The translations under genes were made by a program, and so were the position numbers. A stretch of DNA of 64,000 nt from Candidatus Saccharimonadia bacterium (lineage in GTDB: Bacteria > Patescibacteriota > Saccharimonadia > UBA4664 > SCTI01), in the NCBI GenBank assembly GCA_046597065.1, contig JBKJLI010000003.1, positions 72,219 to 136,218 on the forward strand, read 5' to 3'. Shown in pieces: positions 28,774 to 46,936 of the stretch (the stretch's first letter is position 1; every line of letters begins with the position of its first letter). The notes below the pieces were generated by a model. The model did not search any database, was not told the origin of the DNA, and saw nothing but the letters and a program-made list of their open reading frames with translations.

Positions 28774-28863
28774 GGAGAGGTGGCCGAGTGGCTGAAGGCG
28801 CACGCTTGGAAAGCGTGTATGCGGGCAACCGTATCGTGGGTTCGAATCCCACTCTCTCCGCCA
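28774..28863 (+). tRNA. tRNA-Ser (anticodon GGA); the island described next starts immediately 3' of it
   Basis: GGAGAGGTGGCCGAGTGGCTGAAGGCG CACGC TTGGAAA GCGTG plus a long variable arm plus GTGGGTTCGAATCCCAC TCTCTCC G CCA. Confidence 0.9.
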
Positions 28864-29006
28864 GTTATTATTTTCTTTTTCGACCCGTCCCCCTAACCCT
28901 TATATAAGGTGGAAGGGGCGGGATTTTTGAACCAAAAATAAGCCCTCAAAATCATCAAGTTCGAATCATTCCCATTCGCATGGGGAGGGGATTCGAACTG
29001 GCCTAG

Positions 29007-30344
29007 CTAAATTTTTTTACGCCTGGTTTTCTTCTCAACGTAGACCTTGAGATCCTTTAAGAAGATTTCGCCCGTCACATAGCTCAGGATCTCGCGCTTT
29101 TCTTCTCTCGTACCCTCTTGCAAGACGTATTTGGCGTAAGCTCGCAGATCAATCGTCGGCATACTCGACTCCACCGGACTTTGCCCTAGAATCCCATTGG
29201 CAAATTTCTCATAGCGCGCGATTTCTTGCTTAAACTTCTCTTGAGCGCCAATCTCATCGATTGGCAGTTCATCAATCAGGCTGAGGAGCTCAATCATGAT
29301 ATCACCCTCGCGAATGTAGGGCTGACTACAGTCCAAGTCATTTGCCCGGCCACAGTGGTAGTAGACATAGTGCCTAACCTGACCGTCTTTTAAGATCTTG
29401 CGTTTCTCCTCGGCTGTAATCCCGGTTTTGCAGGCTCCGCATTTCATAATCCTCGTGAATCCGAACTCTTTGCTGCCTGCTGGTGCTTTCGGTGCTACTG
29501 TCAGCTGCACCTGGACTTCGTCAAACAGCTCCTTAGTGATCAATGGCTTATGTTTACCCTCATGCCAGGTATCGATGGTTGTAGGGTACTTAAACCGTCC
29601 GTAGTAAAAGGGGTTCTTTAGCGTCCGGTAGATGTGGCTTAAAACCAATCCCTGGCCGCTTTTAGTTTCAAATCCACTGGTATCGAGCCAGCGTTTGAGG
29701 TCTCGCCCCGTAGCCGCTTGTTTGGCGACTCTCTCGAACATCTCGATAATGACTGGTGCACGTTCCGGATCGATAATAATCTTATCCTCACCAAGGCCGT
29801 TATTCAGATAGCCAATTGGCGCTACACCTGGTCGCCAACCGTTGGCGGCTTTGTTACGCAAGCCCCGGATAACGTTCAACCCTCGATTGTCGTTCTCAAG
29901 TTTGGCCTGGCTACCGAGAATCATAAGCAGGAACTTCTCGTTGGGTGAATTGGTGAAGGTTTGCCCATGGGTACGAATTTCCTGCAAACCACCCGAGTCC
30001 ATCAGGTCGACCAGCACCCCCAGGTCGCCCGCCGATCTGGAAAGTCGATCTGGCGCCCAGGTTATGATTGCATTGAAATAGCCGAGCCTAATGTCTTGAA
30101 TCATGCGGTTAAAGATTGGCCTGGTGCCTGCCACCTTTGATGAGTGGCTCTCTTTGCGGATCTCCGCTACCTCAATGCCCCAGTGATCCGCTAGCAGCGT
30201 CATTTCCTTGATCTGCTGCTCAATCGATAGCGCTTGGCGTTCGTCCTGTTCGCTCGATTTGCGGGCGTATAGGCAGTAGATCAGTTTGGTCGCGACGGGC
30301 GCGGTTTGTATCTGTTGTGGGATAGTCGATTCCATTACCAACAC
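29007..30344 (-). CDS. Large serine recombinase (resolvase/invertase catalytic domain, recombinase domain and zinc ribbon)
   Basis: Catalytic region YARKSSEQDERQ...ITWAPDRLSRS. C-terminal CGACKTG...YYHCG zinc ribbon. 445 aa. Confidence 0.85.
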   Translation of the reverse strand: MLVMESTIPQQIQTAPVATKLIYCLYARKSSEQDERQALSIEQQIKEMTLLADHWGIEVAEIRKESHSSKVAGTRPIFNRMIQDIRLGYFNAIITWAPDRLSRSAGDLGVLVDLMDSGGLQEIRTHGQTFTNSPNEKFLLMILGSQAKLENDNRGLNVIRGLRNKAANGWRPGVAPIGYLNNGLGEDKIIIDPERAPVIIEMFERVAKQAATGRDLKRWLDTSGFETKSGQGLVLSHIYRTLKNPFYYGRFKYPTTIDTWHEGKHKPLITKELFDEVQVQLTVAPKAPAGSKEFGFTRIMKCGACKTGITAEEKRKILKDGQVRHYVYYHCGRANDLDCSQPYIREGDIMIELLSLIDELPIDEIGAQEKFKQEIARYEKFANGILGQSPVESSMPTIDLRAYAKYVLQEGTREEKREILSYVTGEIFLKDLKVYVEKKTRRKKI

Positions 30345-30373
30345 AGTACCGCCACGGGGTACTAAGTCTAGTC

Positions 30374-31915
30374 TTATTTTTTCTCGTCGTCCCGATACTT
30401 AATTCCCCAAAAATCGAAGTACTCACTGCTATCATCCCCCAACCAGCCGAATCCAAAGGTCACTTCCCATTTGACGTTCACTTGAATGTAATTTAGCCCC
30501 ATCGACATGGCATCAGCCAAGTCATCATGCTTCTCGACGCCAAAACCAACTAACTGCTGAATGATCGGTGCTACGGCCCGATCCTTAGGGAAATAGACTG
30601 TCCTCTGTTCAAATAGCGGGCTAGCCAGTTGCAAGCGAGCTCTCTTGTCGGCATGGATCTTAATACCTTTCGATTCAATATCCCGGTCTTTGAGCTGTTC
30701 AATCACTGCCGCCTGGTACTGGACTTGCTCGACGAGTACTCGTGGCCGTTTTTCATCGTTATGATCTAGCGCCCGGTACATCAGCGCAATCGTATCGAGA
30801 GTCTCCAGATGTGACATTTTTCGGTTAATAAAGGTCTTATCAATGTAATAGCGCCGATCCTCTAGCTTGTAGCCAAACAAGTGAATCAGCACAATCGCCG
30901 TATAATCAGCCGTCGCGCTTTGGGAAATAGCCAGGTCAACTGAAAGAAAAGAGTTAATGTACTCATTAGCCTCGGTTTTCTCAGGCAACTGATCGTAGTA
31001 CTGAATCCAGGCCGGATCGATTACCTGATCCTCGTCGGGGATAATCTTCAGCATGTACTCCCGCTGCCAGGTAATATCGTCACCAACCTTGCGACGCTCG
31101 ACCGCAATTGCTTTCATGTCTTCGTATTTACCCGGCCACAGAATGTGACCTTTGTTGTCGACAAGCGGGTATGCCCGGAAGATCCCATCCAAGCGCTTGT
31201 CTTCAAAGCGCTGCTTAAGCCGCATCAGTAACGAGTCCTCGTGGAGTAGGTTGCCGACAATAATCATCTTAGTGTTACGGTCACCAGCCGGAATAACTTC
31301 ACCCATCAGCCACTTAAAGACTTTGTCACGGCCTTCACGGGTCTTAGTCGACATCATATCCTCAACATCATCGACAATCACCAGGTCTGGCCGGTACTCA
31401 CCGTGCCGAATACCCCGAATACTCTGATCGGTTGAGGCCGCACTAATTCGGGCGCCGTACTTGGTCAGCACCAGCGAGCTTGAGCCCCACTCGTCACTAA
31501 ATTCTTCGAGTGGTCCGAAATCCTTACGCAGGATATCGTTAGTCTCAAACTCCCGCTTGATGTTAGCCAAGTGCATCCTGGCTTGGGCCTGTGTCTGGCT
31601 GAGTAATAGAACGAACTTCTTCAGTGGCGTCCCCAGCACTGCCCAGATTGGGTAGGAAGAAGTAACGATGGTCGATTTGCCTGAGCCGCGGAAGGCTACG
31701 ATTACAGCGTGTTTAATAGCTGGATCCTGGGTAATTTCAAACACTTCACGCTGGAAGTCGGCCGTTGCGTATTTGACATAACGACCAAGGTAAATGTGGA
31801 AGAACCAATAGTGACTCTGCCGGGCTGTAGCCATCCTGATACTGCGGTCTGTCCGAATAGATTCCAGCAGTGGGTTAGGTATTATACTGGGAGGATTGAT
31901 CAGTTGCTCATTCAT
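30374..31915 (-). CDS. Phage terminase large-subunit-like ATPase-nuclease (PBSX/Terminase_6-like), copy 2
   Basis: Walker A VAFRGSGKST and Walker B DLVIVDDVED in the N-terminal ATPase, plus a C-terminal nuclease-like region. About 70% identical to the adjacent copy over the first roughly 400 aa. Confidence 0.65.
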   Translation of the reverse strand: MNEQLINPPSIIPNPLLESIRTDRSIRMATARQSHYWFFHIYLGRYVKYATADFQREVFEITQDPAIKHAVIVAFRGSGKSTIVTSSYPIWAVLGTPLKKFVLLLSQTQAQARMHLANIKREFETNDILRKDFGPLEEFSDEWGSSSLVLTKYGARISAASTDQSIRGIRHGEYRPDLVIVDDVEDMMSTKTREGRDKVFKWLMGEVIPAGDRNTKMIIVGNLLHEDSLLMRLKQRFEDKRLDGIFRAYPLVDNKGHILWPGKYEDMKAIAVERRKVGDDITWQREYMLKIIPDEDQVIDPAWIQYYDQLPEKTEANEYINSFLSVDLAISQSATADYTAIVLIHLFGYKLEDRRYYIDKTFINRKMSHLETLDTIALMYRALDHNDEKRPRVLVEQVQYQAAVIEQLKDRDIESKGIKIHADKRARLQLASPLFEQRTVYFPKDRAVAPIIQQLVGFGVEKHDDLADAMSMGLNYIQVNVKWEVTFGFGWLGDDSSEYFDFWGIKYRDDEKK

Positions 31916-31927
31916 CTGGTGGACTCC

Positions 31928-33496
31928 TTAAAAATTATCGTTCAATGTTACCCAACGGTTGTTCTCAAACTCACTAAAGCCTGCCCACAGGCTATGGCGA
32001 CCAACCATCACCGTGCCGGTCGAACGAACGCCATCATTCTCAAGTACCCGCTGGAGCAAGATTGCAAACGCATCGGCCAAGTCGTCATAACGCTCACTAC
32101 CGAAGCCGGTCAGCTGGTGGATGAGCTGCTCACAGCCTTGGCGCGGGAAAACTACCTTACCGCTTTCGACCAAATGGCTGACTGCCGTTAGGCGAGCCCG
32201 TTTATCCTGGCCGTAGACTTTTACGCCCTCGGCCGAGTAGTTCTCCCGATTCAGTTGTTCGATCAGAGCACTTTGGTAGCCCACATCTTCGATGTAGAGC
32301 TTGACGCTGTGTTTGGTGCCAAGCCGTGCTACGAGATCCCGGGCTTTGTCCAAGGTCTGTAAATGAGTCAGATGGGCGTTAACCGGCCGAGGTAAAATAT
32401 AGATCTTGAGATCTTCGACGTTGCCGTGTACTTGGGCTGACACCATGGCCGTGCAGTCAGCGGTTGTCCGCAGTGAAATAGCCAAATCAATGCCGACGGC
32501 CGTGTAGCGATAGTGATCCTGCTCCTGGGAGGGCAATTCGTCGTAGTAGCGAATCCAAGCCGGAAAGATAACCTGATCGTCTTCGGGAACGATCTTAAGC
32601 ATGAACTCGCGTTGCCAAGCTTTCTCATTGCCAAGCTTACGTTTGGCAGTTTCGATGGCATCGTGATTGGGGTATTTACCAGGCCAGAGAATCTGGTTGT
32701 TTGGTGATACTACAGGGTACGCTCTGAAAACACCATTCAACCGCCCTGATTCAAAACTTGCGCGCAGTCGCATCAAAAGTGAGTCTTCGTGCAGCAGGTT
32801 TCCAACCATCACCACCTTGGTGTTCTGGTCTCCTGCTGGCAGCACCTCGCCGGTTAACCAGTTGTAGGTCTTATCCCGGCCTTCCTGAGTTTTGGTCGAC
32901 ATCATATCTTCGACATCGTCGCAGATGATGAGATCTGGCCGATGTTCACCGTGCCGCAACCCGCGAATACTCTGATCAGTTGATGCGGCACTGATCCGTG
33001 CACCATACTTTGTGAGTACCAGCGAACTTGAACCCCACTCGTCGCTTTCTTCTTCAAGCGGTCCGAAATCTGCCCGAAGCAGCTCATTAGCCTCAAATTC
33101 GCGCTTGATGTTGGCCAAATGGAGTCGGGCTTGTTGTTGGGTTTGGCTCAAGATCAGGATGAACTTTTTATGCTGGCTACCAAGTACTGCCCAAATTGGG
33201 TAGGACATGGTAACGACCGTCGATTTGCCGGAACCTCGAAAGGCCACGATTACCGCATACTCGATCTCCTGATTCTCGGTTAACATGAAGATTTCTTTTT
33301 GGAAGTCGGCTGTTGGGTGCTTTAAGTAGCGGCTGAGATAAAGGCTGAAGAACCAGGTGTGACTGCGCTCGGCTGTCGCCATCCGGATCTTACGGTTGCC
33401 CCGAATATGCTCCCAGAGGTCGGGAGTAAGACTGGCCTCAACATCGGCTGGCAAAGTGTTATTCATGGACTTGCTCCTCGGTAGTAATCGGCTCAA
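31928..33496 (-). CDS. Phage terminase large-subunit-like ATPase-nuclease, copy 1
   Basis: Same motifs (VAFRGSGKST; DLIICDDVED). Tandem paralog of 30374-31915. Confidence 0.65.
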   Translation of the reverse strand: MSRLLPRSKSMNNTLPADVEASLTPDLWEHIRGNRKIRMATAERSHTWFFSLYLSRYLKHPTADFQKEIFMLTENQEIEYAVIVAFRGSGKSTVVTMSYPIWAVLGSQHKKFILILSQTQQQARLHLANIKREFEANELLRADFGPLEEESDEWGSSSLVLTKYGARISAASTDQSIRGLRHGEHRPDLIICDDVEDMMSTKTQEGRDKTYNWLTGEVLPAGDQNTKVVMVGNLLHEDSLLMRLRASFESGRLNGVFRAYPVVSPNNQILWPGKYPNHDAIETAKRKLGNEKAWQREFMLKIVPEDDQVIFPAWIRYYDELPSQEQDHYRYTAVGIDLAISLRTTADCTAMVSAQVHGNVEDLKIYILPRPVNAHLTHLQTLDKARDLVARLGTKHSVKLYIEDVGYQSALIEQLNRENYSAEGVKVYGQDKRARLTAVSHLVESGKVVFPRQGCEQLIHQLTGFGSERYDDLADAFAILLQRVLENDGVRSTGTVMVGRHSLWAGFSEFENNRWVTLNDNF

Positions 33497-33881
33497 TTTG
33501 CCCCAACCCGGCCAAGCGCAAAGCCTCTTGGACGACCGCTTCTTGCTCTGGAGTTAACGTTTGATCTTCAACCTTAAGCCGTCCATCAATCTGGACTCTG
33601 GTGGCATAGGTCGGGTGATGGTGCTTCAACCAGAAAATTATGCCAGTCATGTTGCCGTCTCGGATTGCAGCCATCAGCTGGCTCTCAGCCATGTCATTAA
33701 CCAGTGAAGCTCCCTCGCTGAGTGCAAGATCGGCTGCCTCGGCAAACTCTGCATCATCTTTATGCCAACGGTAGTAGGAAGCCCGGCCGAGACCGGTCTT
33801 CTCGCAAGCTAGCTGTACAATCGGCGTTTTGCGTAATTGGTCAATCAACAGCGCTTTATTCCGAGTGGTTTTATCCGACAT
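33459..33881 (-). CDS. Terminase small-subunit-like HTH protein
   Basis: 140 aa. N-terminal HTH (LRKTPIVQLACEKTGLGRASYYRWHKDD). Located immediately upstream (in transcription order) of the TerL-like genes. Confidence 0.5.
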   Translation of the reverse strand: MSDKTTRNKALLIDQLRKTPIVQLACEKTGLGRASYYRWHKDDAEFAEAADLALSEGASLVNDMAESQLMAAIRDGNMTGIIFWLKHHHPTYATRVQIDGRLKVEDQTLTPEQEAVVQEALRLAGLGQIEPITTEEQVHE

Positions 33882-34629
33882 GGCTCACCTCCAGCAATTT
33901 GGCAGTACCACCAGTCAGCTTCTCCCAGCGGTCAACGACGACTTGGCAATACGCTGGATCAAGCTCAATTGCCAGGCATTTACGTTTGGTTTGCTCACAG
34001 GCTAACAAGGTTGAGCCGGAACCAACGAACGGATCATAAATATAGTCGCCAACTCGGCTGGAATTAAGGACAAGATTTCGGAGCAGGCCAACTGGCTTCA
34101 TGGTCGGATGGAGCTTACTGCGGCTTGGTTTTGGATAGACCAACAGGCTTTTATCTTTGGCTTTGACGAATTCATGCGTTCCAAACCAGCCGTAGGCGAT
34201 AAGTTCGTGTTGGGGTAAGTAGTCCATGCGTCCAACCACAGCATGGGTCTTCACCCAGATCAGTAATTGGGTAAAGCGACAGCCCGCATCCTGCATGCCC
34301 TCCCGCAAAGCGAAGAGCATTTTGTCCGAGTTGAAGATATAGACAGCGTTCTTTGGAGCAAGGTACGGTTTGGCGGTTGCCAGCCAATCTTTGGTGAAGC
34401 ACCGGTATTCATCATCGCTTTGGTAATGGTCGCCGGTAATTTCACCACTCGATCCCAGCTTTTGTGAGAAGCCAGCCTTACTGTCGGTGTAGGCCACACC
34501 ATAGGGCGGGTCGCAGAGGATTAATTTGATCTGATCGTTGCCAACTAGTCGCCTTACCAGTTCTGGGTCTTTGGCATCGCCACAGGCTAAGCGATGGTCG
34601 CCGAGCTGGATGATCTGTTCCGGCTTCAT
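33871..34629 (-). CDS. DNA N6-adenine/N4-cytosine methyltransferase (DPPY family)
   Basis: Motif IV LILCDPPYGV and SAM-binding motif I near the C-terminus (FVGSGST). No adjacent restriction endonuclease. Confidence 0.8.
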   Translation of the reverse strand: MKPEQIIQLGDHRLACGDAKDPELVRRLVGNDQIKLILCDPPYGVAYTDSKAGFSQKLGSSGEITGDHYQSDDEYRCFTKDWLATAKPYLAPKNAVYIFNSDKMLFALREGMQDAGCRFTQLLIWVKTHAVVGRMDYLPQHELIAYGWFGTHEFVKAKDKSLLVYPKPSRSKLHPTMKPVGLLRNLVLNSSRVGDYIYDPFVGSGSTLLACEQTKRKCLAIELDPAYCQVVVDRWEKLTGGTAKLLEVSHVG

Positions 34630-35897
34630 AGCATCACCGCCTTCTGGCCGGTTAGGGCTTCGTATCTAGCAATAATGACATCGCAGAAGATTGGCTCAGC
34701 TTCGGCGAGGAACGCCAGGCGCTTCAGCTGCTCACAGGCCACCATGGTCGAGCCGGAGCCAGCCGTGACGTCGAGTACGATATCGCCTGGCTTAGTACAA
34801 CGCCTGAGGGGCTTTTCGTGCAGGGTCGGCGGCTTCTGAGTCGGGTGCTCGTAATCCTGAGCCGAATCGCGCTTGGCCAGCCAGATATTGAAGAGATCTA
34901 GAATGTCGTCGAGACTACGGTTACCGACTGCCACATCCTTATTCAAGATCTCGGTGAGGTTTTTGGTCTTGGACAGGTATGGTTTGCCGCGAGTGCCATA
35001 AACGCACGGTTCGTACGCTTTATTGAAGGCGATTTGCGGGGTCATGTTGAAATTGTTCTTAATCCAGAGGCAAACCCGCTTCGGAGCCAGACCAATCTCA
35101 ACATATAAACTTTGGAGCATGCCAATATAAGATTCGTCGCAGTAGCAAAAGACATGGCAGTCCGGCTTGGCAACTGCCATGCCGTTCACTAGAAGTGACT
35201 GGAGAAAGGCACTGTAGTCGGGATCGGACTTGTGGTCGTTGGTCGAGCCACCATACTTGCCGTTGGTACTGATGCCTTTGCTGTAATCTAGCGAAATATT
35301 GAACGGTGGGTCGAAGTAGAGCGCACTGACAAGGTCGCTTCCGACTAAGTGGTGGATTACAGCCGGATCGGTGGCGTCGCCGCAGATTAGCCGGTGTGAA
35401 CCGAGCTGGAACAAATCACCTGACTTAGTCTGTGGTGTCTTGATCTCCCGAATGGCTTTATCTACATCGAAGTCATCTTCCTCGGTTGCCAGTGCTTCAT
35501 CCCAAATCGCTGAGAGGTCGCCATCGTCGAAACCGACATCCAGCAGGAGACCCATGTCGAACTCTTTTAATAACTCCAGGTCCCACTCGCCTGTATTGGC
35601 GTTGAGACGAAGATTTAACTCTTTCTCGCGCTCTATATTTGGGATATTCACATAAACTACTGGGACATCGGTATAGCCCAGATCTTGCGCGACCTTCAGT
35701 CGGAAGTGTCCACCGATGACCACATTCTTTCGGTCAGACGCACCGTTCACAATGATGGGGTCGATTAGACCGAAGCGCTTGATGCTAGCAGTTAGATCAC
35801 CCGTCGCCTTATTACTCCAGCGCCTGGGGTTATATGGGGCTGGGTTAAGGTTAGTGGTGGGTACCTGAACTATTTGAATGTCGGTTGCTTGCTTCAT
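34626..35897 (-). CDS. ParB-like nuclease domain fused to a DNA methyltransferase
   Basis: N-terminal ParB/Srx motif (GGHFRLKVAQDLG). C-terminal MTase motifs (ALYFDPPFN; VTAGSGST). Confidence 0.8.
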   Translation of the reverse strand: MKQATDIQIVQVPTTNLNPAPYNPRRWSNKATGDLTASIKRFGLIDPIIVNGASDRKNVVIGGHFRLKVAQDLGYTDVPVVYVNIPNIEREKELNLRLNANTGEWDLELLKEFDMGLLLDVGFDDGDLSAIWDEALATEEDDFDVDKAIREIKTPQTKSGDLFQLGSHRLICGDATDPAVIHHLVGSDLVSALYFDPPFNISLDYSKGISTNGKYGGSTNDHKSDPDYSAFLQSLLVNGMAVAKPDCHVFCYCDESYIGMLQSLYVEIGLAPKRVCLWIKNNFNMTPQIAFNKAYEPCVYGTRGKPYLSKTKNLTEILNKDVAVGNRSLDDILDLFNIWLAKRDSAQDYEHPTQKPPTLHEKPLRRCTKPGDIVLDVTAGSGSTMVACEQLKRLAFLAEAEPIFCDVIIARYEALTGQKAVML

Positions 35898-35970
35898 AAC
35901 CTGATTTTCGGTTATGAGAAGGGAGAATAGTACCTGAATTGTTCAAGATAAGTTCTGGAAAAGTTCCGTA

Positions 35971-36621
35971 CTAGAAACTTCTAACGTATTTCAGCTGATA
36001 GCCTTCGCCCCAGCGACGAGTAACTTCTATCTCCAGATCGTCTTTCCTGAGCGCCCGTTTAAGTTCAGACATCAGATTAGGAATGCCCTTTACTGGGTCA
36101 AAGTTGCCGAGCTTCGCTTTGATCGTTTCATTACTCACATAATGCTCTGGAAACTCAAGCAGCATGACTAGTAGCTTGCCATGCTTAGAGGTGTGATAAA
36201 GATTCTGAAGGCGCCGTCCTTGATATTCAAACCGGCCGTCGATCAGGACTACGAACCCAAAATTAGGAGGTGCTGGGCGCTCAATCACTGTCGCCGCTGT
36301 GGGTGCTGCTGCAACCAGTGCTCCTTGAATCGGGAATATGTTAAGAAGTGGTTGAATCTCAATGATCAGGGGTGAGATCTTGGGAGTGATCTCCGATACC
36401 ACGGCCATTGTTCGACGAAGGTTATCGAAAATGCCGTTGGGAATTCGGATTGCCTCCACCATTCGCCTGTGCGTTTCGGCAATTTGCTCTTGCATCTCAG
36501 CCATTTGACGCACGAACCCCAAGTTGATTTGGGGCATAACAAGTGTACCCAAGTCGTGGCCGATGTTATCAAGGTCTAGAATCATTTCTTCTCCAGAACA
36601 TCTTTTACCAGAGAGAACCAT
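35971..36621 (-). CDS. Hypothetical protein with a C-terminal OmpR/PhoB-type winged-helix DNA-binding domain (no receiver domain)
   Basis: C-terminus ...ALRKDDLEIEVTRRWGEGYQLKY resembles the Trans_reg_C recognition wing. The N-terminal 120 aa are unassigned. Confidence 0.4.
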   Translation of the reverse strand: MVLSGKRCSGEEMILDLDNIGHDLGTLVMPQINLGFVRQMAEMQEQIAETHRRMVEAIRIPNGIFDNLRRTMAVVSEITPKISPLIIEIQPLLNIFPIQGALVAAAPTAATVIERPAPPNFGFVVLIDGRFEYQGRRLQNLYHTSKHGKLLVMLLEFPEHYVSNETIKAKLGNFDPVKGIPNLMSELKRALRKDDLEIEVTRRWGEGYQLKYVRSF

Positions 36622-37502: not shown

Positions 37503-37503
37503 G

Positions 37504-38659: not shown

Positions 38660-38873
38660 AGAAGTCCTCGACCTTAACGCCCATCCCCTTGGCCAGTCGA
38701 TAAATTGTCGTAACGGTTGGTCGGCGAATCCCTGTCTCAATGTTTGCAATGGCGACTCTATCTAGCCCGCTTTTGTCTGCAAGCTGTTCTTGTGTCATGC
38801 CTTGCTCGCGGCGCAATTGAGCGAGGCGTTTGGCCACTTTCTCCAAAAATGCCTTTTCGGCTTTTGATTCCAT
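38646..38873 (-). CDS. XRE-family HTH regulator (Cro-like)
   Basis: LAQLRREQGMTQEQLADKSGLDRVAIANIETGIRRPTVTTIYRLAKGMGV. Convergent and overlapping with the CI-like gene. Confidence 0.8.
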   Translation of the reverse strand: MESKAEKAFLEKVAKRLAQLRREQGMTQEQLADKSGLDRVAIANIETGIRRPTVTTIYRLAKGMGVKVEDFFKGL

Positions 38874-38978
38874 AGCTTAAGCATAGGAAGAATAGCCTTG
38901 TCAAGACATAATCATTTGATTACAATTCAAGCTTATGCTATAACTTGTGTAAACATTTGATTAAGGAGATTTACACCT

Positions 38979-39545
38979 ATGAGCGACCAGGCGAAAAAGA
39001 AAAATTGGTTTGCACGGCACAAGATCATGTCCGTAATACTTGGACTAATAGTAATCGGGGTCATTACCTCGGCTGCCGGTGGCAACAAGGGCAGTACCAA
39101 CACTCCATCTGGTAGTACCAAACAGGCCTCTAGTGGAGCTAAGACCGTCGGCATTGGTCAGGCGGCTCAAGATGGTAAGTTTGAATTCACGGTCAACAGC
39201 TTCAAATGTGGCGACACCACAGTTGGAACAAACCAATATCTGACCAAGACTGCTCAAGGTGAGTACTGCCTCATGAACCTCACGGTTAAGAACATCGGCA
39301 ACCAGGCTCAACTGTTCGATGCTTCGAATGAATATGTCTACGACAGCAGTAACAATAAACTATCTGCCGACAGTACCGCTTCAACCTACGCTAACCCTGA
39401 TGGAAGCACGTTCCTCAACCAGATCAACCCAGGCAACTCCGTCACTGGTACTGTCGCCTTCGATGTAGCAAAAGGTGCAACCATTGCGACTGCTGAACTT
39501 CATGATTCCGCATTCTCCAGCGGTGTCAAAGTTACGCTTAAGTAG
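38979..39545 (+). CDS. DUF4352-like membrane-anchored protein
   Basis: N-terminal TM anchor, Ser/Thr/Gly linker, then a beta-rich domain (GKFEFTVNSFKCGD...GEYCLMNLTVKNIGN). Confidence 0.5.
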   Translation: MSDQAKKKNWFARHKIMSVILGLIVIGVITSAAGGNKGSTNTPSGSTKQASSGAKTVGIGQAAQDGKFEFTVNSFKCGDTTVGTNQYLTKTAQGEYCLMNLTVKNIGNQAQLFDASNEYVYDSSNNKLSADSTASTYANPDGSTFLNQINPGNSVTGTVAFDVAKGATIATAELHDSAFSSGVKVTLK

Positions 39546-39727
39546 CCACGGCAGATCCCCCTTATGCTTTCTATCCATATCGTTTTAGCTTAAAATACTC
39601 GGGGCGGAACTCAGGTGCCGCCTTTGGTTTATTACGTTCGTTGACATATCCAGGCCGGATTATTGCTTTAAGGGTGATTAGCGGTAATCCGGTCTGGAAC
39701 AGACCCTTACAAAAGGAGGGATGCCAA

Positions 39728-40636
39728 GTGCATCTTGCCACTACACTGGCTGGCGTCGAGCTTGAGCATCCGCTCATGAATGCTGCTGGCACCTGCAAGA
39801 CCCTGGAGGACGTCGAGAAGCTCGCTAGGTCAAGCATTTCGGCCATTGTGGTCGGTTCCATCACCCTCGCATCCCGGATGGGGAACGAGGGGAATGTTTT
39901 CTGGCCTGGTCCGATCTACTCGCAGAACTCTCTCGGGATGCCCAATCGTGGGCGTGACTACTACCAGGACACTCTCCCGCGAATGGTCGAGGTAGCTCAT
40001 GGTGCTGGCAAGGCTCTGATCCTCAACGTCGCTGGCTTTAGCCATATCGAATATGGCGAGCTGGCAGCGCTGGCGCACGAAGCCGGGGTTGACATCATCG
40101 AGCTCAACCTCGGCTGTCCGAATGTGTGGGACGACGGTCAGCAGAAAAAGATCGCCTCGTTCGACCCATTCGGTATCGCAGCCATCATGGCTGAGGTCGA
40201 GCGCAAGGTTCCTGACGATCGACCGGTTGGTGTGAAGCTCTCGCCCTATTCCGATCCCGGGATGCTGGCGGAAGTTGCGGATACCATCAAGGATCTCCCG
40301 ATCCGGTACGTCGCCACCTGCAACACTTTCCCGAACTCGCTGGTTCTCGACGAGAATGGCAAGTCGGTGATCGACGTTGGACTGGCTGGGCTGAGTGGCC
40401 CTGCCATGAAGCCCGTCGGTCTCGGTCAGGTTAAGCAGTTGCGACAGCTTCTGCCGGACTCGGTCGAGCTCGTGGGCGTCGGCGGTATCACAAAAGGCCG
40501 CGACGTCTGGGAGTACCAGCAGGTCGGAGCTTCAGCCGTCCAGGTGGCTACGGCCTACTGGAACAGCAACGAAAACCCCGGCGTCTTCGGGGACATCCTG
40601 TCGGATTACATCGACCAGTTCCCCGAGGAGGGCTGA
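39728..40636 (+). CDS. pyrD: Dihydroorotate dehydrogenase (class 1-like), GC-rich
   Basis: GTG start 7 nt after AAAGGAGGG. ELNLGCPN motif, a GVGGI phosphate-binding loop, and an N-terminal NAAG. About 62% GC. Confidence 0.8.
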   Translation: MHLATTLAGVELEHPLMNAAGTCKTLEDVEKLARSSISAIVVGSITLASRMGNEGNVFWPGPIYSQNSLGMPNRGRDYYQDTLPRMVEVAHGAGKALILNVAGFSHIEYGELAALAHEAGVDIIELNLGCPNVWDDGQQKKIASFDPFGIAAIMAEVERKVPDDRPVGVKLSPYSDPGMLAEVADTIKDLPIRYVATCNTFPNSLVLDENGKSVIDVGLAGLSGPAMKPVGLGQVKQLRQLLPDSVELVGVGGITKGRDVWEYQQVGASAVQVATAYWNSNENPGVFGDILSDYIDQFPEEG

Positions 40637-40637
40637 C

Positions 40638-41381
40638 ATGAGCACCATCACCGATCCCATCGAGCGGATAATCTGGAGTGCGGACGTGGCTGACGAGGAA
40701 GCCTTGATGGCTGCACTCGACCGAATGCCAGATCTCCGAGTCATCAAGATCGACCGCCTGTTCGTGACCGAAGTCGGTCTGGGCGTCATCGATCGGCTGG
40801 CCGAGCGTGGGCTGCTGGTCTTCGACGACGCCAAGATCATCGAGATTCCCTCGAAGGTTGTCGGCATCGCCAAGAAGCACCTGGTACACCGACCGTTCAT
40901 GCTCAACTGCATGGCGGGTGCTCAGTCCAGTGGCCTCCTGACGCACGAAGACCCGGAGAAGGTCGACGGGCTCAAGCGGTTCGCCGATGTCTGCCTCGAA
41001 GCTGGCACCAAGCCCTGTGCAGTCACGGTGCTGACCAGCAAGACAGCAGACGTCGTCGGTAGCGAGTTCAACGGCCGAGACAGCATGGAGCAAGTGCTCT
41101 ACTACGTCGAGGCGTTGCTCGAGTGCGGCTTCACTGACGTGGTCTGCTCCCCAAAGGAGCTTCCCGCAATTCGGGCTGAGAGTCGCTTTGACGGCCTCGA
41201 CCTGAACACACCGGGAATTCGCCCGGCGGGTTCTGACGCTGGAGACCAAGCCAGGGCCGACACTCCCGAAGGGGCACTGGCGGCTGGAGCAACTCGGCTC
41301 GTCATCGGCCGACCCATCACGACCGGTGATCCGGCCGAGAACCTCAAGAACATCGTCGCCAGCATCACCGCTGAGGCCTGA
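40638..41381 (+). CDS. pyrF: Orotidine 5'-phosphate decarboxylase
   Basis: DDAKIIEIP (DxKxxDIP) catalytic motif and the C-terminal LVIGRPI. GC-rich. Confidence 0.75.
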   Translation: MSTITDPIERIIWSADVADEEALMAALDRMPDLRVIKIDRLFVTEVGLGVIDRLAERGLLVFDDAKIIEIPSKVVGIAKKHLVHRPFMLNCMAGAQSSGLLTHEDPEKVDGLKRFADVCLEAGTKPCAVTVLTSKTADVVGSEFNGRDSMEQVLYYVEALLECGFTDVVCSPKELPAIRAESRFDGLDLNTPGIRPAGSDAGDQARADTPEGALAAGATRLVIGRPITTGDPAENLKNIVASITAEA

Positions 41382-41395
41382 CCAAGGAGATCAAG

Positions 41396-42034
41396 TTGGA
41401 CGTCCTGAAAGAACTCGACCAAGCAGGTGCTGTTCTGCTCGATCAGCACTTCGTCTACAAGAGCAAGAAGCATGGGTCTGGCTACATCAACATGGACCCG
41501 CTTTTTCCCGACGTGGGGCTGGTCTCGTCGCTGTGTGCGTTGCTGGTACGACCGTTCGAGGGCGACTTCGACACGGTCGCTAGCCCGGCAACCGGTGGCG
41601 TGGTGCTTGCGTTCGCCAGTGCCATGCAGACGCCTGGTACACGGCCGGCCGCGGTTTGGGCAGACAAGGACGGGGATGAGTTCCGCTTCGAGTGAGCAGG
41701 CTTCACCGACCACCTCAAGGGCAAGCGTGTCCTGGTGGTCGAGGATCTGCTCACGACAGGCGGTTCGGTGCTCAAGGTCTGCCGAGAAGCGGAGAAGCAC
41801 GGTGCCGAGATCATCGGTGTCAGCGTCATCTGCAACCGAGGTGGCGTTACCGCCGAACAGCTCGGCGTCCCGCGACTGGAAGCACTCGCCAGCGTCAGCT
41901 TTGCGGCTGTCGATCCCGGCGAGTGTGAGCTGTGCAAGAACAACGTTCCCATCGTCGAGGACATCGGTCATGGCGAAAGCTACAAGGCCGAGCACCCCGA
42001 CTACGAGGGTGGCTACATCAAGCTGCTCTCCTGA
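41396..42034 (+). pseudogene. pyrE: Orotate phosphoribosyltransferase-like gene interrupted by a single in-frame TGA at 41693-41695
   Basis: The ORFs 41396-41695 and 41735-42034 are in the same frame and separated only by a TGA (...DEFRFE*AGFTDHLKGKRVLVVEDLLTTGGS...). The PRTase motif VLVVEDLLTTGGS lies downstream of the stop. Confidence 0.6.
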
Positions 42035-42323
42035 ACACCTAGCAGTAGGTGGGCAGCCAAGTTCTGGAGCTAATCCAGGGCTTGGCGCTCAACCCAAGAT
42101 TTTAAGCCATTAAAGTTTTAGGCTGAGTCAATAAGTAGAGCTTGACAGCGTAAGCGTTTAGTAGTATAATACCCAAGTATTTTGACAATATGCTATTACT
42201 CCCCTTGAGAGCGGCGCTCTGCAACCAAGTGTTTGGTATCAGTGTGCCGCTCTCAGCCCCCGCTGAGACCACGATGCGCATACCGCGCAAGCGTGGACGA
42301 ACACCGGCACAGGAGGATTTGTC

Positions 42324-43136
42324 ATGGGAACCAAGGCAACCCGCGAGGAGCTCGGTGACCTCGGCGTCGTGTACGCCAGGTTGTTCGAGTTCGTCAAGAA
42401 CGGCAAGAGGCCAGCAGGGCTCGTCATTGCAGGGATGCAGCGACTGGCCGATGGTCAGTTCCCGGAGAACACGCGGTTCGACCGCTACAACCACCTGCTG
42501 CTGTCCCTGGACGACCAGTTGGAGCGCCTACGGCGTTACAACACGAAGTACTGGGACAGCCGCCTGACCGATGAGCAGCTCGCTGCCGTCGACACGTCCG
42601 GTGATCTCACCCAGCGGGTCGACGACCTCACAGCCTTTCACGTCCAGTTCGACTCCCTCGAGGAGACGGTCGAGATGTGGTGGCGCGTGTACGTCGGCGA
42701 GCAGCCCAAGCAGTGGCGCTGGGACGAGCTCAAGCTCGACTCGGAGCACCTGCGGCTTCTCACTTCCAACGTCCGCCAGTACGAACCCGGTATCCATCGG
42801 ATCCGGATCGACCTGGTGGCTCACTGGGAGCCCGAGGACGGGCGCACGCTCGAGGAAGTCCGTGAGGGCGCCAAGGGCACCAGCGAGATTCTCGCTCAGC
42901 TCGAGGTCCTCTCGGCCTACGGTCTGCACTCGGAGCTTTTCCGGGAGCAGGACGGCGAGAACCTGCCGTATTCGGACATGCCCGGTACCGACGTGTCGGT
43001 TCCCGGCCGCTCCGGGCCGTGCGCTCTGTGCGTGGGCTGGTCCCCGTTCGCCCTCGAGGCCGGGCTGAACGCCGGCTGGGTCAGCCGCCGCAGCCACAAG
43101 TGGGCGGCGCCGGTGCTCAGGGAGTTGCAGAGCTAG
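42324..43136 (+). CDS. DGR target protein; its C-terminal 41 codons are the variable repeat
   Basis: 270 aa, GC-rich. The C-terminus (...CALCVGWSPFALEAGLNAGWVSRRSHKWAAPVLRELQS) lies within VR. No signal peptide. Confidence 0.75.
   Translation: MGTKATREELGDLGVVYARLFEFVKNGKRPAGLVIAGMQRLADGQFPENTRFDRYNHLLLSLDDQLERLRRYNTKYWDSRLTDEQLAAVDTSGDLTQRVDDLTAFHVQFDSLEETVEMWWRVYVGEQPKQWRWDELKLDSEHLRLLTSNVRQYEPGIHRIRIDLVAHWEPEDGRTLEEVREGAKGTSEILAQLEVLSAYGLHSELFREQDGENLPYSDMPGTDVSVPGRSGPCALCVGWSPFALEAGLNAGWVSRRSHKWAAPVLRELQS
42999..43123 (+). repeat. DGR variable repeat (VR), 125 bp
   Basis: Identical to TR (43501-43625) except at 21 positions, all of which are adenines in TR (A to G, C or T in VR). Followed by GC-rich hairpins (CTAGGACTTCGGTCCCTAG). 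Confidence 0.9.
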
Positions 43137-43500: not shown

Positions 43501-43625
43501 GTTCCCGGCAACTCCAAGCCGTACGCTCTGTACGTGAACTGGAACCCGTTCAACCTCAAGGCCAAGCTGAACGCCAACTGGGTCAGCAACCGCAACAACA
43601 AGTGGGCGGCGCCGGTGCTCAGGGA
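43501..43625 (+). repeat. DGR template repeat (TR), 125 bp, rich in AAC codons
   Basis: Same frame as VR. Codons AAC/AAG sit at every diversified position. The 85-aa ORF 43417-43674 in the track is this repeat, not a gene. Confidence 0.9.
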
Positions 43626-43668: not shown

Positions 43669-44058
43669 TTATAGCGATTTTAGCCAGCCACCCAACATAC
43701 GGCCAATTTCATGGAGTTGAGACTCAAGAGCCAGATAGGTCTTGTTGTCGATGCATTTGCAGTCTTTGCTGAGTCGAACCATTAGCCGCAGTAGATCGAG
43801 TTTAGTTGAGGCTACGCTTAACCGCTCCTTTTTGGTTTCCGGTTTAGCAGTACTTGCCGCAGTAACAACCGCTTCCATCAGATCAAGCAGTTCGGTCTGC
43901 ATGGCTGAGCCTAACGAGTAGCGTTGGGATTTTGGAAACTTTAATAGCAATTCATGGAGAGCTTTATACAGCTGATACAGCGAATGGACAATAGGGATAT
44001 CAATCAAACCCCCACTCAACTTAGCTTGGACTTTACTACTGGCATTGGAACTAGTCAT
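43669..44058 (-). CDS. avd: DGR accessory variability determinant (Avd-like four-helix-bundle protein)
   Basis: 129 aa. ...LYKALHELLLKFPKSQRYSLGSAMQTELLDLMEAVVTAA matches the Avd/23S-IVS four-helix-bundle family core. AAGGAGG Shine-Dalgarno. Confidence 0.7.
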   Translation of the reverse strand: MTSSNASSKVQAKLSGGLIDIPIVHSLYQLYKALHELLLKFPKSQRYSLGSAMQTELLDLMEAVVTAASTAKPETKKERLSVASTKLDLLRLMVRLSKDCKCIDNKTYLALESQLHEIGRMLGGWLKSL

Positions 44059-45045
44059 GAAACCTCCTTATTATCGTCATTTGATTACATTTGTTCTATT
44101 ACAAGCCTTTTTCAGGCATGGAGCAAGTTTAGCCGGGGGAAGCGCTCAAAACTGGATGTCTTATGTTATGAGCGATCGCTAGAGGAGAACATCTTCGAAC
44201 TGCAGGAGCAGCTGGTAGGAGGTAAATTTAAACATGGCCCATATGTGCCATTTACCATTTGCGATCCAAAAACGCGCCGAATCCACAAGGCTACCGTCCA
44301 AGACCGCTTAGTTCATCAGGCACTGGTTAGTGCCATTGAGCCACTATTCGAACGCCAGTTTATTTATGACAGCTATTCCTGCCGCAAGAATAAGGGTACC
44401 CACGCAGCAGTAAGACGATTGCGAACCTTCTTACGACAAGCTAGTCATAACGACACCCAGACGGTGTACGCCCTCAAATGTGATGTGAAGCAGTTCTTTG
44501 CCTCGGTCGATCACGAGATTCTGGTGAATTTGCTGAAGCAGAAGGTTGATGATCCAGATACACTCAAGCTATTACTTTTGATAATTGATAGCCTATCCAC
44601 TTGCCCTGGCAAAGGCATCCCACTTGGTAACCTCACCAGCCAGCTTTTTGCTAATATTTACTTGCATGAGTTCGATTGGTTTGTGAAGAATCGAATACGT
44701 GAGAAGCATTATCTGCGCTATTGCGATGATTTTATTATTCTCAGCACTAACCGGCAGCATTTACTGGAATTAATTGAGCCAATTACTCGGTTTCTGAGCG
44801 ATCGGCTAGCGCTCACAGTCCACCCAAATAAGATCACAATTCGCAGCTGGGGTCAGGGTATCGACTTCTTGGGCTATGTTCTCAAGCCCCAATGTATCGT
44901 TCTGCGCCACAAGACGAAGCTACGAACGCTCAAACGGGTGGATAGCAACAATCTGACGTCTTACGTTGGGTTGTGCTCTCACGCCGACGCATATGAGCTG
45001 AGCCAGCTTATTACAATAAAGGCATTAACCAAGCAGGAGGATTAG
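44026..45045 (+). CDS. DGR reverse transcriptase
   Basis: Aligns with BPP-1 bRT from the N-terminal LFQAWSKFSRGKR. RT motifs include IPLGNLTSQLFANIYL (the DGR-specific [IL]GxxxSQ) and YCDDFIIL (YxDD). The start is uncertain: TTG at 44026 is proposed, the ORF-track ATG at 43954 would overlap avd. Confidence 0.85.
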   Translation: MDFTTGIGTSHETSLLSSFDYICSITSLFQAWSKFSRGKRSKLDVLCYERSLEENIFELQEQLVGGKFKHGPYVPFTICDPKTRRIHKATVQDRLVHQALVSAIEPLFERQFIYDSYSCRKNKGTHAAVRRLRTFLRQASHNDTQTVYALKCDVKQFFASVDHEILVNLLKQKVDDPDTLKLLLLIIDSLSTCPGKGIPLGNLTSQLFANIYLHEFDWFVKNRIREKHYLRYCDDFIILSTNRQHLLELIEPITRFLSDRLALTVHPNKITIRSWGQGIDFLGYVLKPQCIVLRHKTKLRTLKRVDSNNLTSYVGLCSHADAYELSQLITIKALTKQED

Positions 45046-45047
45046 AT

Positions 45048-46109
45048 ATGGATCGTAAAAGATATGAGGATCTCTATGACGAAATTACAGTTGAGGGCTG
45101 TCGCTCTGGCGAACGAATAGTTAATGGCACTTTCAGCGAGATGGAACCGAAAGTGCCACCGTCAGAAATTGAACAACGTCGTCCGGGTTGGTACTTGTTC
45201 TATAGCCAGCTCTATTTTGGCCTCGTTGAGTCCCGGGCAGCTGCGCGAGCAGTAAAGCGTGATCAGACTATTAGCGAGTGGGTGGCTCGGGACGAGGAGA
45301 AAGACCGTGTCCTAGCTAACGCACACTTTGAGGGTGGTACGTACTGCCGAAGCTGCGGTAAAGACATGCGGGTTATTAGCAAGGACTATATGCGCCGCGA
45401 GGGTCGCAAGGAAGATGACATCCTGCTGATGTTTGAGTGCGATAATTGCAATAAGCGACTGGCCTTATGGCAAGACGGCACCGAGTGGGAGGGTGCCAAG
45501 ACCTTATGCGAGAAATGCGGTGAATCAATGGATCATACCGGCAAAACTGATAACAAGGTTGTCACAACTACCTACAAATGCCCCAAATGCGGACATAGTT
45601 ACCAAGACAGCTTTGAGCTTGGTGGAAGTAAAGAAGAAGAGCCACCCGATCCTAACTACGAGCTGGATAAAAAGCGGTTTGTCTTCGATAGCGACATGAT
45701 GTTTAAGTACGAGCAGAAACGCCGTCATCTCGAGCGGCTAATGAAGCTCGAGGCTACCGTCGCTGATCAAGCTGTGCATGCTGATATCTATGAGGCCATC
45801 AAAGATATCAAGAAGCTCAAAATTGCCCAGCTGACTGAGATATTGAAGCCAGGATTAGAAAAAGCTGGCTACACTGAGTTTATGCTAGGTCAGCCGGAAC
45901 TAGGTCGCGAGGTGGCCGTGGGATTTAGCTGCTTAGATGCCAAGGCCGAACGAGAAGAGTACAACAGCAAGAAGGATCTGCAAAAGCTGATCTCTAAAAC
46001 TCTGGATGATACAAACTGGCGGTTAATGAGTGAGGGTGTGAGTTACCGGGTTGGCTACTTGACCGGCAGCTCCGTGCTTACGAAAGCGAAGATGAACTTC
46101 GGAAGCTAA
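45048..46109 (+). CDS. Multi-zinc-ribbon protein translationally coupled to the DGR RT (4 CxxC pairs)
   Basis: ATG 2 nt after the RT stop. CRSCG, CDNCN, CEKCG, CPKCG. Acidic, coiled-coil C-terminal half. No known family recognised. Confidence 0.5.
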   Translation: MDRKRYEDLYDEITVEGCRSGERIVNGTFSEMEPKVPPSEIEQRRPGWYLFYSQLYFGLVESRAAARAVKRDQTISEWVARDEEKDRVLANAHFEGGTYCRSCGKDMRVISKDYMRREGRKEDDILLMFECDNCNKRLALWQDGTEWEGAKTLCEKCGESMDHTGKTDNKVVTTTYKCPKCGHSYQDSFELGGSKEEEPPDPNYELDKKRFVFDSDMMFKYEQKRRHLERLMKLEATVADQAVHADIYEAIKDIKKLKIAQLTEILKPGLEKAGYTEFMLGQPELGREVAVGFSCLDAKAEREEYNSKKDLQKLISKTLDDTNWRLMSEGVSYRVGYLTGSSVLTKAKMNFGS

Positions 46110-46213
46110 TCGAGCAAAAAGCCAAGCATGGCACATTACCGCCACCAACGGCAAAGCCAGTTGAGGCGCTGCCGGATCATCCACCGACTACGCTTAGTCC
46201 AAGGGAGCGCAAT

Positions 46214-46492
46214 ATGCGCGAATCAGCCTTGGTTTATTTTCATAAAATGACGCTCGACTCAGTACCAGCCGAGATTACCCTAAAGAGTGGTATGAAGAAG
46301 TCGACGAGCATTCCTTTTCTGCGAATGGAGATGCATCCGCTACTCCGAGTGATCATACCAATGCGCGATAATGACGATTCGGTACCCGAGTTTGCTAGAA
46401 CGTTTGATTTTAAGTCGGGCGGTGACAAAGATATCCCGCAGATTAAAAAAGATAGCCTAGGGCGAGAAATAAGACGTCTCGATAAGGAGTAG
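46214..46492 (+). CDS. Hypothetical protein
   Basis: 92-aa ORF. No motif. Confidence 0.3.
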   Translation: MRESALVYFHKMTLDSVPAEITLKSGMKKSTSIPFLRMEMHPLLRVIIPMRDNDDSVPEFARTFDFKSGGDKDIPQIKKDSLGREIRRLDKE

Positions 46493-46494
46493 TT

Positions 46495-46719
46495 TTAGCT
46501 TCGTTTTTCAATCCGACCGTCTTGAAGATGGCTAGGAGCTTTTTCGAACAGCCTGATTAACCCCTGAGCTGCCCGCATTGCCACTTCATCATTTGGAAAT
46601 TCTAGGCCACGCATTTCCTTGGTAATACGCTTAAACTCTGCGAGATCCTGCTTACTAACTTGTGTCATGATAGTGTTCCCCAAGGCACCATTAACTACTC
46701 TCCCTATCTGATAATGCAA
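46495..46719 (-). CDS. Hypothetical protein
   Basis: 74-aa ORF. No motif. Confidence 0.3.
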   Translation of the reverse strand: MHYQIGRVVNGALGNTIMTQVSKQDLAEFKRITKEMRGLEFPNDEVAMRAAQGLIRLFEKAPSHLQDGRIEKRS

Positions 46720-46936
46720 GCTTAAGCGGATTAAAAGGTCGGAACGCTAGCCTATGCGTTGTAGTAGCGATTCAGTCAAGCCAAGGCTACGAGGGCTCCG
46801 AAATGAGACACAAAACAATCCCTTTTTATAGTGTCTTATTTGTCTCATTTCCTCCTTAGGCACTATAATTCTTGAGACAGTCGGAAAGTTCCTGACCCGG
46901 CTGCTCCGCCAGTAATAATTAAAGTATAATTAGGCA

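Follow-up and report, generated by a model that had tools for sequence, protein, structure and literature searches.

The stretch of DNA analysed here (the window, 64,000 nt in full) is chromosomal DNA of Candidatus Saccharimonadales (TM7, Patescibacteria), and it contains an island of phage-like genes that begins directly 3′ of a tRNA-Ser(GGA) gene. At the level of sequence, the comparisons reported below show this island to be a discrete, bounded element that was transferred recently; its backbone of integrase, terminase and methylase genes is conserved, and virion genes were not detected in it. We regard it, with modest confidence, as a satellite-like integrative mobile element of 18,048 bp that uses the capsids of a helper phage; satellite transfer as the mode of its spread we judge to be evenly balanced. 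A first-pass annotation of the same DNA had left three options for the island, a decayed prophage, a phage satellite resembling the phage-inducible chromosomal islands (PICIs) or an unusual integrative element. The satellite is the best fit of the three, the unusual integrative element is compatible with what was found and the decayed prophage is disfavoured. Saccharibacteria are ultra-small epibionts with minimal genomes, and their mobile elements and phages are poorly known.

Integration site and movement of the element

The tRNA-Ser(GGA) gene (28774-28863, + strand; ARAGORN) is the integration target, and its 3′ end forms attL. The 10-mer CTCCGCCAGT, already noticed as a direct repeat, was found at both ends of the island, at 28856 and 46904 (chance expectation 0.05 per window), and it lengthens to an exact 17-mer, CTCCGCCAGTWATWATT, that occurs at these two positions only when the whole window is searched. 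The attL core, CTCCGCCAGTTATTATT (28856-28872, + strand), was defined by the repeat search and is the point at which element-side identity stops in a three-way alignment of junctions; the attR core, CTCCGCCAGTAATAATT (46904-46920, + strand), is supported by the repeat search and by synteny, with a chromosomal SDR gene beginning at 46937. The window carries chromosomal genes on both sides, namely ValRS, FemAB, Mur ligase, GroEL and MacB/ABC transporter to the left and SDR, DnaG, RpoD and PolA to the right.

A distant Saccharimonadales metagenome-assembled genome (MAG; locus L003) has the gene order MacB–ABC–tRNA-Ser(GGA)–SDR–…–DnaG–RpoD–PolA, in which a near-identical tRNA gene and SDR are adjacent, with no insert. 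This uninterrupted arrangement is the empty site that the first-pass annotation had proposed to look for in a related genome, and it bears out, with the ARAGORN prediction, the start of the island directly 3′ of the tRNA. From the end repeats and the tRNA–SDR contiguity of L003, the insert is therefore 18,048 bp long. L003 is the sole relative showing the empty site, and its tRNA gene (6674-6763) lies on the opposite strand relative to the ABC/SDR flanks when compared with that of the window. A metagenome scan with the SDR protein gave relatives of at most 54% identity only and no closer empty site; the closest DnaG matches in a species-level genome collection were Saccharimonadales MAGs only (63-71% identity). 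Homologues of the SDR gene (46937-47719 in the window) were also seen on many unrelated metagenome contigs (loci L127-L197) with a tRNA-Ser(GCT) gene of either orientation on the upstream side and tRNA-Ser(TGA) on the downstream side, an SDR/tRNA-Ser neighbourhood that is recurrent across these contigs.

Evidence of movement comes from a second genome. A large terminase (TerL) protein, P0181, 97% identical in amino-acid sequence to one of the two TerL proteins of the island (TerL_B), is encoded on locus L210 (GCA_038236865.1), where positions 1-3750 align with window 32584-28835 at 91.0% nucleotide identity and without gaps. The aligned span covers the 3′ part of the other terminase gene (TerL_A), TerL_B, the integrase and the attL arm. 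Beyond the junction, L210 runs into tRNA-Ser(TGA), a small open reading frame (ORF), tRNA-Arg(GCG) and tRNA-Ser(CGA), which is the homologue of the window at 11.9-12.9 kb. In the three-way alignment the element arm is the same up to …AATAATAACTGGCGGAG in both occupied sites and is then followed by tRNA-specific sequence, the break falling exactly at the core. The window's own tRNA-Ser(TGA) gene (11878-11976, − strand; ARAGORN, junction alignment and 17-mer search) is the unoccupied form of the L210 site (…AGAATAATTGCTGGCGGAG…) and represents an empty alternative attachment site, its 3′ end (11878-11894) matching CTCCGCCAGTWATWATT with one mismatch; tRNA-Ser(GCT) matches with three.

The host ORF adjoining the L210 junction is 43% identical between the two genomes, compared with 97% for TerL_B. 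Because a 91%-identical copy sits at another tRNA gene, next to a flanking protein of 43% identity, the element must be far more recent than the split between its hosts and has been mobile recently between distantly related lineages. Its target appears to be the shared 3′ end of tRNA-Ser genes. An ancient, fixed region, which the first-pass annotation would have recognized by relatives with the same genes at the same tRNA and identical flanks, is the opposite of what was seen. The shared attL/attR core at the boundaries and the empty sites elsewhere, in L003 and at tRNA-Ser(TGA) of the window, are the marks of an element integrated by a large serine recombinase (LSR). Mobility is directly supported, while the mechanism of transfer is unproven. 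The predicted attP junction reads …CCGGCTG-CTCCGCCAGT-TATTATTTTC… and the predicted empty attB …CCCACTCT-CTCCGCCAGT-AATAATTAAAG….

Several further observations concern these sites. A third exact copy of CTCCGCCAGT at 2516-2525 (− strand), within a coding sequence of 768 aa, does not extend to the 17-mer and was set aside as chance. The 17-mer search of the window gave no CTCCGCCAGTWATWATT-like site inside the island, and a composite island made of two adjacent insertions was rejected, there being no internal att-like site in its support. The tRNA-Ser(TGA) gene stands in a tRNA cluster at 11887-13107 (Ser-TGA on the − strand, Arg-GCG, Ser-CGA and Ser-GCT). A short-read contig (L039, Logan SRR31159421_167443) is 100% identical to window 28835-41915 and ends at 28835, within the tRNA, the same position at which the L210 alignment ends; this end likely reflects an assembly-graph branch at the T-arm common to tRNA-Ser genes.

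Backbone, island family and absence of virion genes

Genes were annotated with Pfam and PHROGs, and defence systems were screened for with PADLOC. The LSR gene (29007-30344, − strand), convergent with the tRNA, encodes Resolvase (E=1e-19), Recombinase (4e-11) and Zn_ribbon_recom (2e-5) domains, all three of which exceed the curated Pfam cut-offs; it is the conserved terminal gene of the family described below and is tRNA-adjacent in relatives too. Next to it lie TerL_B (30374-31915, − strand; phrog_38, 1e-85) and a second intact large terminase, TerL_A (31928-33496, − strand; phrog_38, 5e-80), and then a TerS-like small terminase (33459-33881, − strand) matching PHROG terminase-small families at 4e-6 and 9e-5. 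The TerS orthologue in L040 has Pfam Sf6_terminase and HTH_Tnp_1_2 domains, and TerS is always found directly upstream of TerL in the family. An orphan N6/N4 DNA methyltransferase (33871-34629, − strand; Pfam N6_N4_Mtase, 3e-28) is followed by a ParB_N–DNA methyltransferase fusion (34626-35897, − strand; Pfam), a core gene present in all family loci. The leftward operon begins with an HNH endonuclease (37504-37872, − strand; Pfam HNH, 9e-5), which recurs in L044 and L058. All these assignments of the first-pass annotation are upheld by Pfam and PHROGs, and so is its statement that the two methyltransferases have no restriction partner: PADLOC returned methyltransferase matches only, with no defence system beyond the methylases in the window copy.

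IMG/VR was scanned with a TerL alignment, which gave 80 loci, and the 30 closest were compared with the window proteins by tblastn. Their TerL proteins are 40-68% identical to those of the window, and they share the order ParB-methylase – (methylase) – TerS – TerL – [0-8 kb] – LSR; in several of them TerL directly abuts the integrase. All-against-all clustering left four gene families only as the core, ParB-methylase, TerS, TerL and LSR. The same backbone is found in chromosomal members on a 950-kb contig (L204), with a 2044-aa surface protein and an ABC transporter between TerL and integrase, and on a 198-kb contig (L207), with GmrSD in that place. Variable genes of the family include type I, type III and type IIG/MmeI restriction-modification systems, an SNF2-PLD protein, PIF1 helicase, DUF2779, T5orf172, DUF4352 and the reverse transcriptase (RT)/Avd pairs of diversity-generating retroelements (DGRs). 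Homologues of the S24 repressor and HNH genes recur upstream of the module in relatives, and in L044, L045 and L050 the integrase is convergent with tRNA-Ser or tRNA-Glu, as in the window. In the sequence examined of these three loci, no stretch of 10 nt or more at the tRNA 3′ end was repeated at a distal site, and a search for circular forms found no terminal direct repeats in family contigs. On this shared gene order, the window element belongs to a conserved family of the form [LexA-like S24 repressor / XRE] – HNH – (regulator) – ParB-methylase (± second methylase) – TerS – TerL – [variable cargo] – LSR. The family is widespread and apparently undescribed; our literature search turned up prophage surveys of Saccharibacteria, none of the papers found describing satellites or this island family in these bacteria.

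The island TerLs group as one clade, apart from phage TerLs, in a neighbour-joining tree; the nearest cultured-phage TerLs, those of the Mu-like phages BalMu-1 and RcapMu, are only about 25% identical. TerL_A and TerL_B are 57% identical and both keep the Walker A, Walker B and nuclease residues in the alignment, and they fall into different sub-clades, TerL_A with L045 and TerL_B with the L040-L044 sublineage. The two genes therefore appear to derive from two different sublineages of the family. The tandem pair is without parallel in the other family loci searched by tblastn, but it is present in L210; TerL_B fills the cargo slot between TerL and integrase. The second TerL was probably gained by recombination between two co-resident elements, a route made plausible because a single 39-kb contig (L043/L044, IMGVR_UViG_3300033402_000781) holds two different family elements about 28 kb apart, their MTase–TerS–TerL modules being 74.5% identical. 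At the far end of each of these two elements, on the opposite strand, lies a further serine recombinase gene, for a protein of 537 aa.

No capsid, portal, protease, tail or lysis gene was recognized in the island by Pfam or PHROGs, as the first reading of the sequence had already indicated for all but lysis genes. Nine related phage loci supplied 124 ORFs of 100 aa or more, all of which were then compared by tblastn with the 30 family loci and the whole 64-kb window; only TerL and ParB/methylase matched, and no portal, protease, capsid or tail protein did so. The nearest phages served as a positive control: in L070 and L071, whose TerLs are 34-36% identical, PHROGs finds portal, protease, major capsid, adaptor and tail genes at 1e-110 to 1e-22 (portal 1e-110, major head protein 6e-32), with the structural genes directly after TerL. 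Among the 138 non-core family ORFs, no head, tail or lysis family was present among the 25 most frequent of the 115 PHROG families matched. The profile searches that had been suggested for 35971-37502 and 45048-46719 recognized no structural protein. Structural genes just outside 46913, an outcome that the first-pass annotation had allowed for, were not found either, and SDR, DnaG, RpoD and PolA occupy that side. Of the gene set expected of a Caudoviricetes prophage, TerS and TerL are present, whereas major capsid, portal and protease, tail and lysis genes are not. For replication, Pfam and PHROGs likewise recognized neither a primase or helicase nor a Rep domain among the island genes, the proteins of 306 aa and about 485 aa (zinc-ribbon) described below being candidates for such a role.

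Control region and cargo of the window copy

Two proteins are encoded between the ParB-methylase and HNH genes. The first, of 216 aa (35971-36621, − strand), lies upstream of the ParB-methylase and has a weak OmpR-type winged-helix C-terminus (Trans_reg_C, E=0.004, under the curated cut-off); it has a homologue (E=8e-10) at the same position in L204 and no PHROG or PADLOC match, and is a candidate regulator judging by this domain. The second, of 306 aa (36582-37502, − strand; AlphaFold2 pLDDT 88), has 60 homologues in Saccharimonadales, other Patescibacteria and Armatimonadota, and is also found outside terminase islands, as in L120, beside XRE, M78 peptidase and DUF2188 genes. Searches of PDB and BFVD by fold, and of PDB by profile, gave no match for it, and on this basis a role as capsid or portal protein was rejected.

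A divergent control region (37873-37993) separates the HNH-to-integrase operon from an S24 gene. By consensus matching only, it has a promoter-like TTGACA-18-TAAAAT on the − strand (37924-37895) and two weaker + strand sites. The S24 gene (37994-38659, + strand; Peptidase_S24, 2e-18) encodes a LexA/CI-like repressor that is predicted to be self-cleaving, with a GDSM motif and a LexA-like N-terminus visible; L050, L058, L063 and L067 have homologues of it on the upstream side of the module. An XRE/Cro-like HTH protein (38646-38873, − strand; HTH_3, 7e-18) is encoded by a convergent gene overlapping that of the repressor, in agreement with the convergent CI/Cro-like pair reported before.

Rightward from the switch lies cargo, beginning with a DUF4352 protein (38979-39545, + strand; Pfam 3e-27), which is recurrent and also found in L043, L044 and L065. 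It is followed by a GC-rich pyrD–pyrF–pyrE block (39728-42034, + strand; Pfam DHO_dh and OMPdecase, with Pribosyltran on the Logan gene call). The GC content is 60-62% at 40-43 kb against a background of about 50%, and the GC at third codon positions (GC3) of the three genes is 0.73-0.75 against about 0.5 in host genes. The pyrDFE block of the first-pass annotation thus holds for pyrD, pyrF and the GC content, whereas in pyrE (41396-42034) the reading frame is cut by a TGA codon (41693-41695), at a position completing what we take to be the 'RFERAGF'-type motif of pyrE-type enzymes. Either a nonsense mutation or an error of sequencing may account for the TGA, and pyrE is now apparently inactivated. 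The block is 77.5% identical in nucleotide sequence over 2314 bp to the intact pyrD–pyrF–pyrE operon of L122, a 62%-GC genome with DUF3040, TgpA and DinB as neighbours and an intact 212-aa pyrE. Among the taxon-named relatives of pyrD (52-59% identity), Frankia, Patulibacter/Solirubrobacteraceae and Acidimicrobiales predominate, together with a few Patescibacteria and Dehalococcoidia, and a high-GC donor lineage, plausibly an actinomycetotal one, is suggested by these matches.

The DGR comprises a target gene (42324-43136, + strand, 66% GC) with its variable repeat (VR) at 42999-43123, a template repeat (TR; 43501-43625, + strand; TR/VR alignment), the accessory protein bAvd (43669-44058, − strand; Pfam bAvd, 6e-18) and an RT (43954-45045, + strand; RVT_1, 2e-24). 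In the 125-nt TR/VR pair, 21/21 mismatches fall at TR adenines and only at codon positions 1-2 of the target ORF. With RT, bAvd and adenine-only TR/VR changes at the 3′ end of the target, the DGR is real; it and the DUF4352 protein stand as first annotated. The Avd gene is on the minus strand and divergent from the RT gene, which corrects an earlier note, and DGRs of related elements have the same layout. The target gene has a GC3 of 0.87, richer than the pyr block, and the RT gene a GC content of 46%. In the gap after pyrE, upstream of the target gene, a perfect sigma-70 consensus (TTGACA-17-TATAAT) occurs at 42142-42170.

The ORFs at 45048-46109 and 46214-46492 had been taken as separate genes, but full-length relatives align across both in two frames; they are one zinc-ribbon protein gene of about 485 aa (45048-46492, + strand; homologue alignment), split by a single-base deletion near 46063 (46058-46067). 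The zinc-ribbon family has 547 homologue clusters at 50% identity and gave generic zinc-ribbon matches only in PDB. The last ORF of the island (74 aa, 46495-46719, − strand) has no Pfam, PHROG or PADLOC match. Outside the island, two GC-rich patches at 48594-49877 and 54172-54768 (GC 0.56-0.60, GC3 0.61-0.73), one with a 427-aa ORF that has no Pfam match and the other with an ORF of 198 aa, may be other acquired genes.

A proposed satellite-like element and the alternatives

Being integrated, without a full virion gene set and with packaging genes, the island has the general features of a phage satellite. In the mechanism we propose, the serine recombinase would integrate the circular element at the shared tRNA-Ser 3′ end (CTCCGCCAG and an AT-rich tail), and the S24 repressor would silence the leftward HNH-to-integrase operon from the divergent promoter region until RecA-type self-cleavage or a helper signal lifted repression. 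The element would then be excised, its own TerS/TerL, with HNH, would recognize and cut its DNA and pump it into procapsids of a co-resident or co-infecting helper phage, and the orphan methylases could protect that DNA in the next host.

Known systems resemble the island in part. Capsid-forming PICIs (cf-PICIs) are integrative satellites with their own HNH, TerS and TerL set, and a helper supplies the remaining virion (PMC10690885; bioRxiv 10.1101/2022.09.08.507074). The island also has HNH, TerS and TerL, whereas the portal, protease, major capsid and head-tail connectors encoded by cf-PICIs are not detectable in it or its relatives; it differs further in using an LSR and in having a host from the candidate phyla radiation (CPR). 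With PICIs of the Staphylococcus aureus pathogenicity island (SaPI) type it shares the form of a chromosomal island of about 15-18 kb with the integrase at one end, accessory cargo and no structural or lysis genes, a divergent repressor/regulator pair (here the S24 gene on the + strand against the HNH-to-integrase operon on the − strand, with promoter-like sites between) and, as proposed for the island, a packaging module that redirects helper capsids. However, SaPI-type islands carry only TerS (or Rpp) and rely on the TerL of the helper, they have a pri-rep module, capsid-size genes and usually a tyrosine integrase, none of which was found in the island, and they are induced by helper proteins, whereas the island has a repressor of the self-cleaving type. 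The PICI-like suggestion of the first-pass annotation consequently does not hold in detail, the integrase being of the serine rather than tyrosine type, TerL being the island's own, and no recognizable replication module or capsid-remodelling genes being present.

The phiC31, Bxb1, A118 and SPbeta-type phages have the same three-domain integrase, a CI/Cro-like switch and a short core common to their att sites, but they are complete phages with virion genes. Their serine integrases mostly target protein-coding or intergenic sites, not tRNA 3′ ends. The IMG/VR phages L070-L078 have TerLs 34-36% identical to those of the island, and L070 has a ParB-methylase upstream of the terminase; unlike in the island, TerL is directly followed in them by genes for portal, protease, capsid, adaptor and tail proteins, and they gave no serine integrase match. 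They are probably the ancestral phage stock and are possible helpers. The DGR resembles those of CPR bacteria in its RT, bAvd and adenine-only TR/VR changes at the target C-terminus, and differs in being cargo of a mobile island, in its Avd divergent from the RT and in the 66% GC of its target against 46% in the RT. On gene content, the island is neither a SaPI-type PICI nor a cf-PICI nor a prophage; it has the features of an LSR integrative element and of a DGR, and is most like a phage satellite.

A number of points weigh against this reading. No helper phage was identified and neither excision nor packaging was observed; an exact search of IMG/VR for the attP junction gave no match, and no excised circle was found. 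A dyad seen by eye in the reconstructed attP, GTCGGAAAG…CTTTTTCGAC, was not significant, 996/2000 shuffles having equalled it. No replication module and no recombination directionality factor could be recognized, the latter being a class too varied to be detected by profiles. The PHROG screen of family ORFs covers the 25 most frequent of the 115 matched families, and structural genes could lie elsewhere in the genome, the negative result holding within the 64-kb window. SOS-type self-cleaving repressors are more typical of prophages than of helper-induced satellites. Both pyrE and the zinc-ribbon gene look inactivated, which could reflect decay or assembly errors. To our knowledge, no described satellite family has TerL without capsid genes, and we know of no precedent for this combination working.

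Among the alternatives, one that we consider unlikely is an integrative defence or cargo island whose terminase does not serve its own transfer (it might, for example, interfere with packaging by invading phages) and which spreads by transformation, vesicles or epibiont–host contact. Such an island would agree with the cargo of the relatives, mostly restriction and defence systems, with two non-core family ORFs that match a PHROG family annotated as superinfection exclusion (Sie-like), and with the lack of replication genes, capsid-remodelling genes and packaging evidence among the results. Yet TerS, TerL, HNH and DNA-protecting methylases are kept together in phage order, a set suited to packaging and protecting the element's own DNA; known satellite interference requires far less than a full terminase, and high identity across distant hosts calls for an efficient vehicle.

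It is quite improbable, in our view, that the island is the packaging and lysogeny half of a split phage or of a system resembling a gene transfer agent (GTA), with head and tail genes elsewhere in the chromosome. The window is part of a contig of at least 414 kb, and GTAs with dispersed loci are known, but neither the 64-kb window nor the 10-kb flanks of about 30 relatives contain a structural gene, and the element passes from genome to genome and from one tRNA site to another as a separate piece of 18 kb, which would part it from any fixed structural locus.

A decayed prophage, that is, a complete temperate phage that lost its structural and lysis genes and became an inert remnant, is very unlikely because about 30 independent contigs (TerL 40-68% identity) and two chromosomal ones have the same capsid-less backbone with its core genes intact. 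The integrase, CI-like repressor, Cro-like protein, HNH, methylases and terminase are indeed prophage gene types, and the pyrE stop and the zinc-ribbon frameshift seemingly inactivate two genes; both of these are cargo, however, and not backbone, the island TerLs have a clade of their own, and in a distant host a copy with 91% identity has come to occupy a different tRNA gene. Finally, an autonomous small phage with structural proteins too divergent to recognize can practically be dismissed, in spite of the unannotated 306-aa, 216-aa, zinc-ribbon and 74-aa ORFs and the confident predicted fold of the 306-aa protein without a structural match, given that terminase packaging requires a portal and an HK97-type capsid, which are readily detected in the nearest phage relatives, that these ORFs are too few and lie outside the four conserved core families, and that TerL abuts the integrase in several relatives.

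The satellite-like reading is therefore the one we carry forward. More tentatively, we suggest that the family may constitute an undescribed and widespread satellite class in Saccharibacteria, and possibly in other CPR bacteria, with a complete terminase (TerS and TerL ± HNH), no capsid genes and a serine recombinase acting on tRNA 3′ ends, which would carry between distant epibiont lineages defence systems and DGRs as well as metabolic genes captured from bacteria of high GC content, probably actinomycetotal ones; the two TerLs of the window copy may serve two helpers. The serine integrase and short tRNA-Ser att site make for directly testable predictions, and in the pyrDFE block we have a specific example of metabolic genes of a high-GC lineage that travel as an operon on a mobile element of CPR bacteria. 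If our reading is true, the range of satellites would be widened to a 'terminase only' type, and the family, whose conserved backbone can be transferred together with restriction systems, DGRs, surface proteins and nucleotide-synthesis genes, would rank among the main routes by which genes spread horizontally through this phylum.

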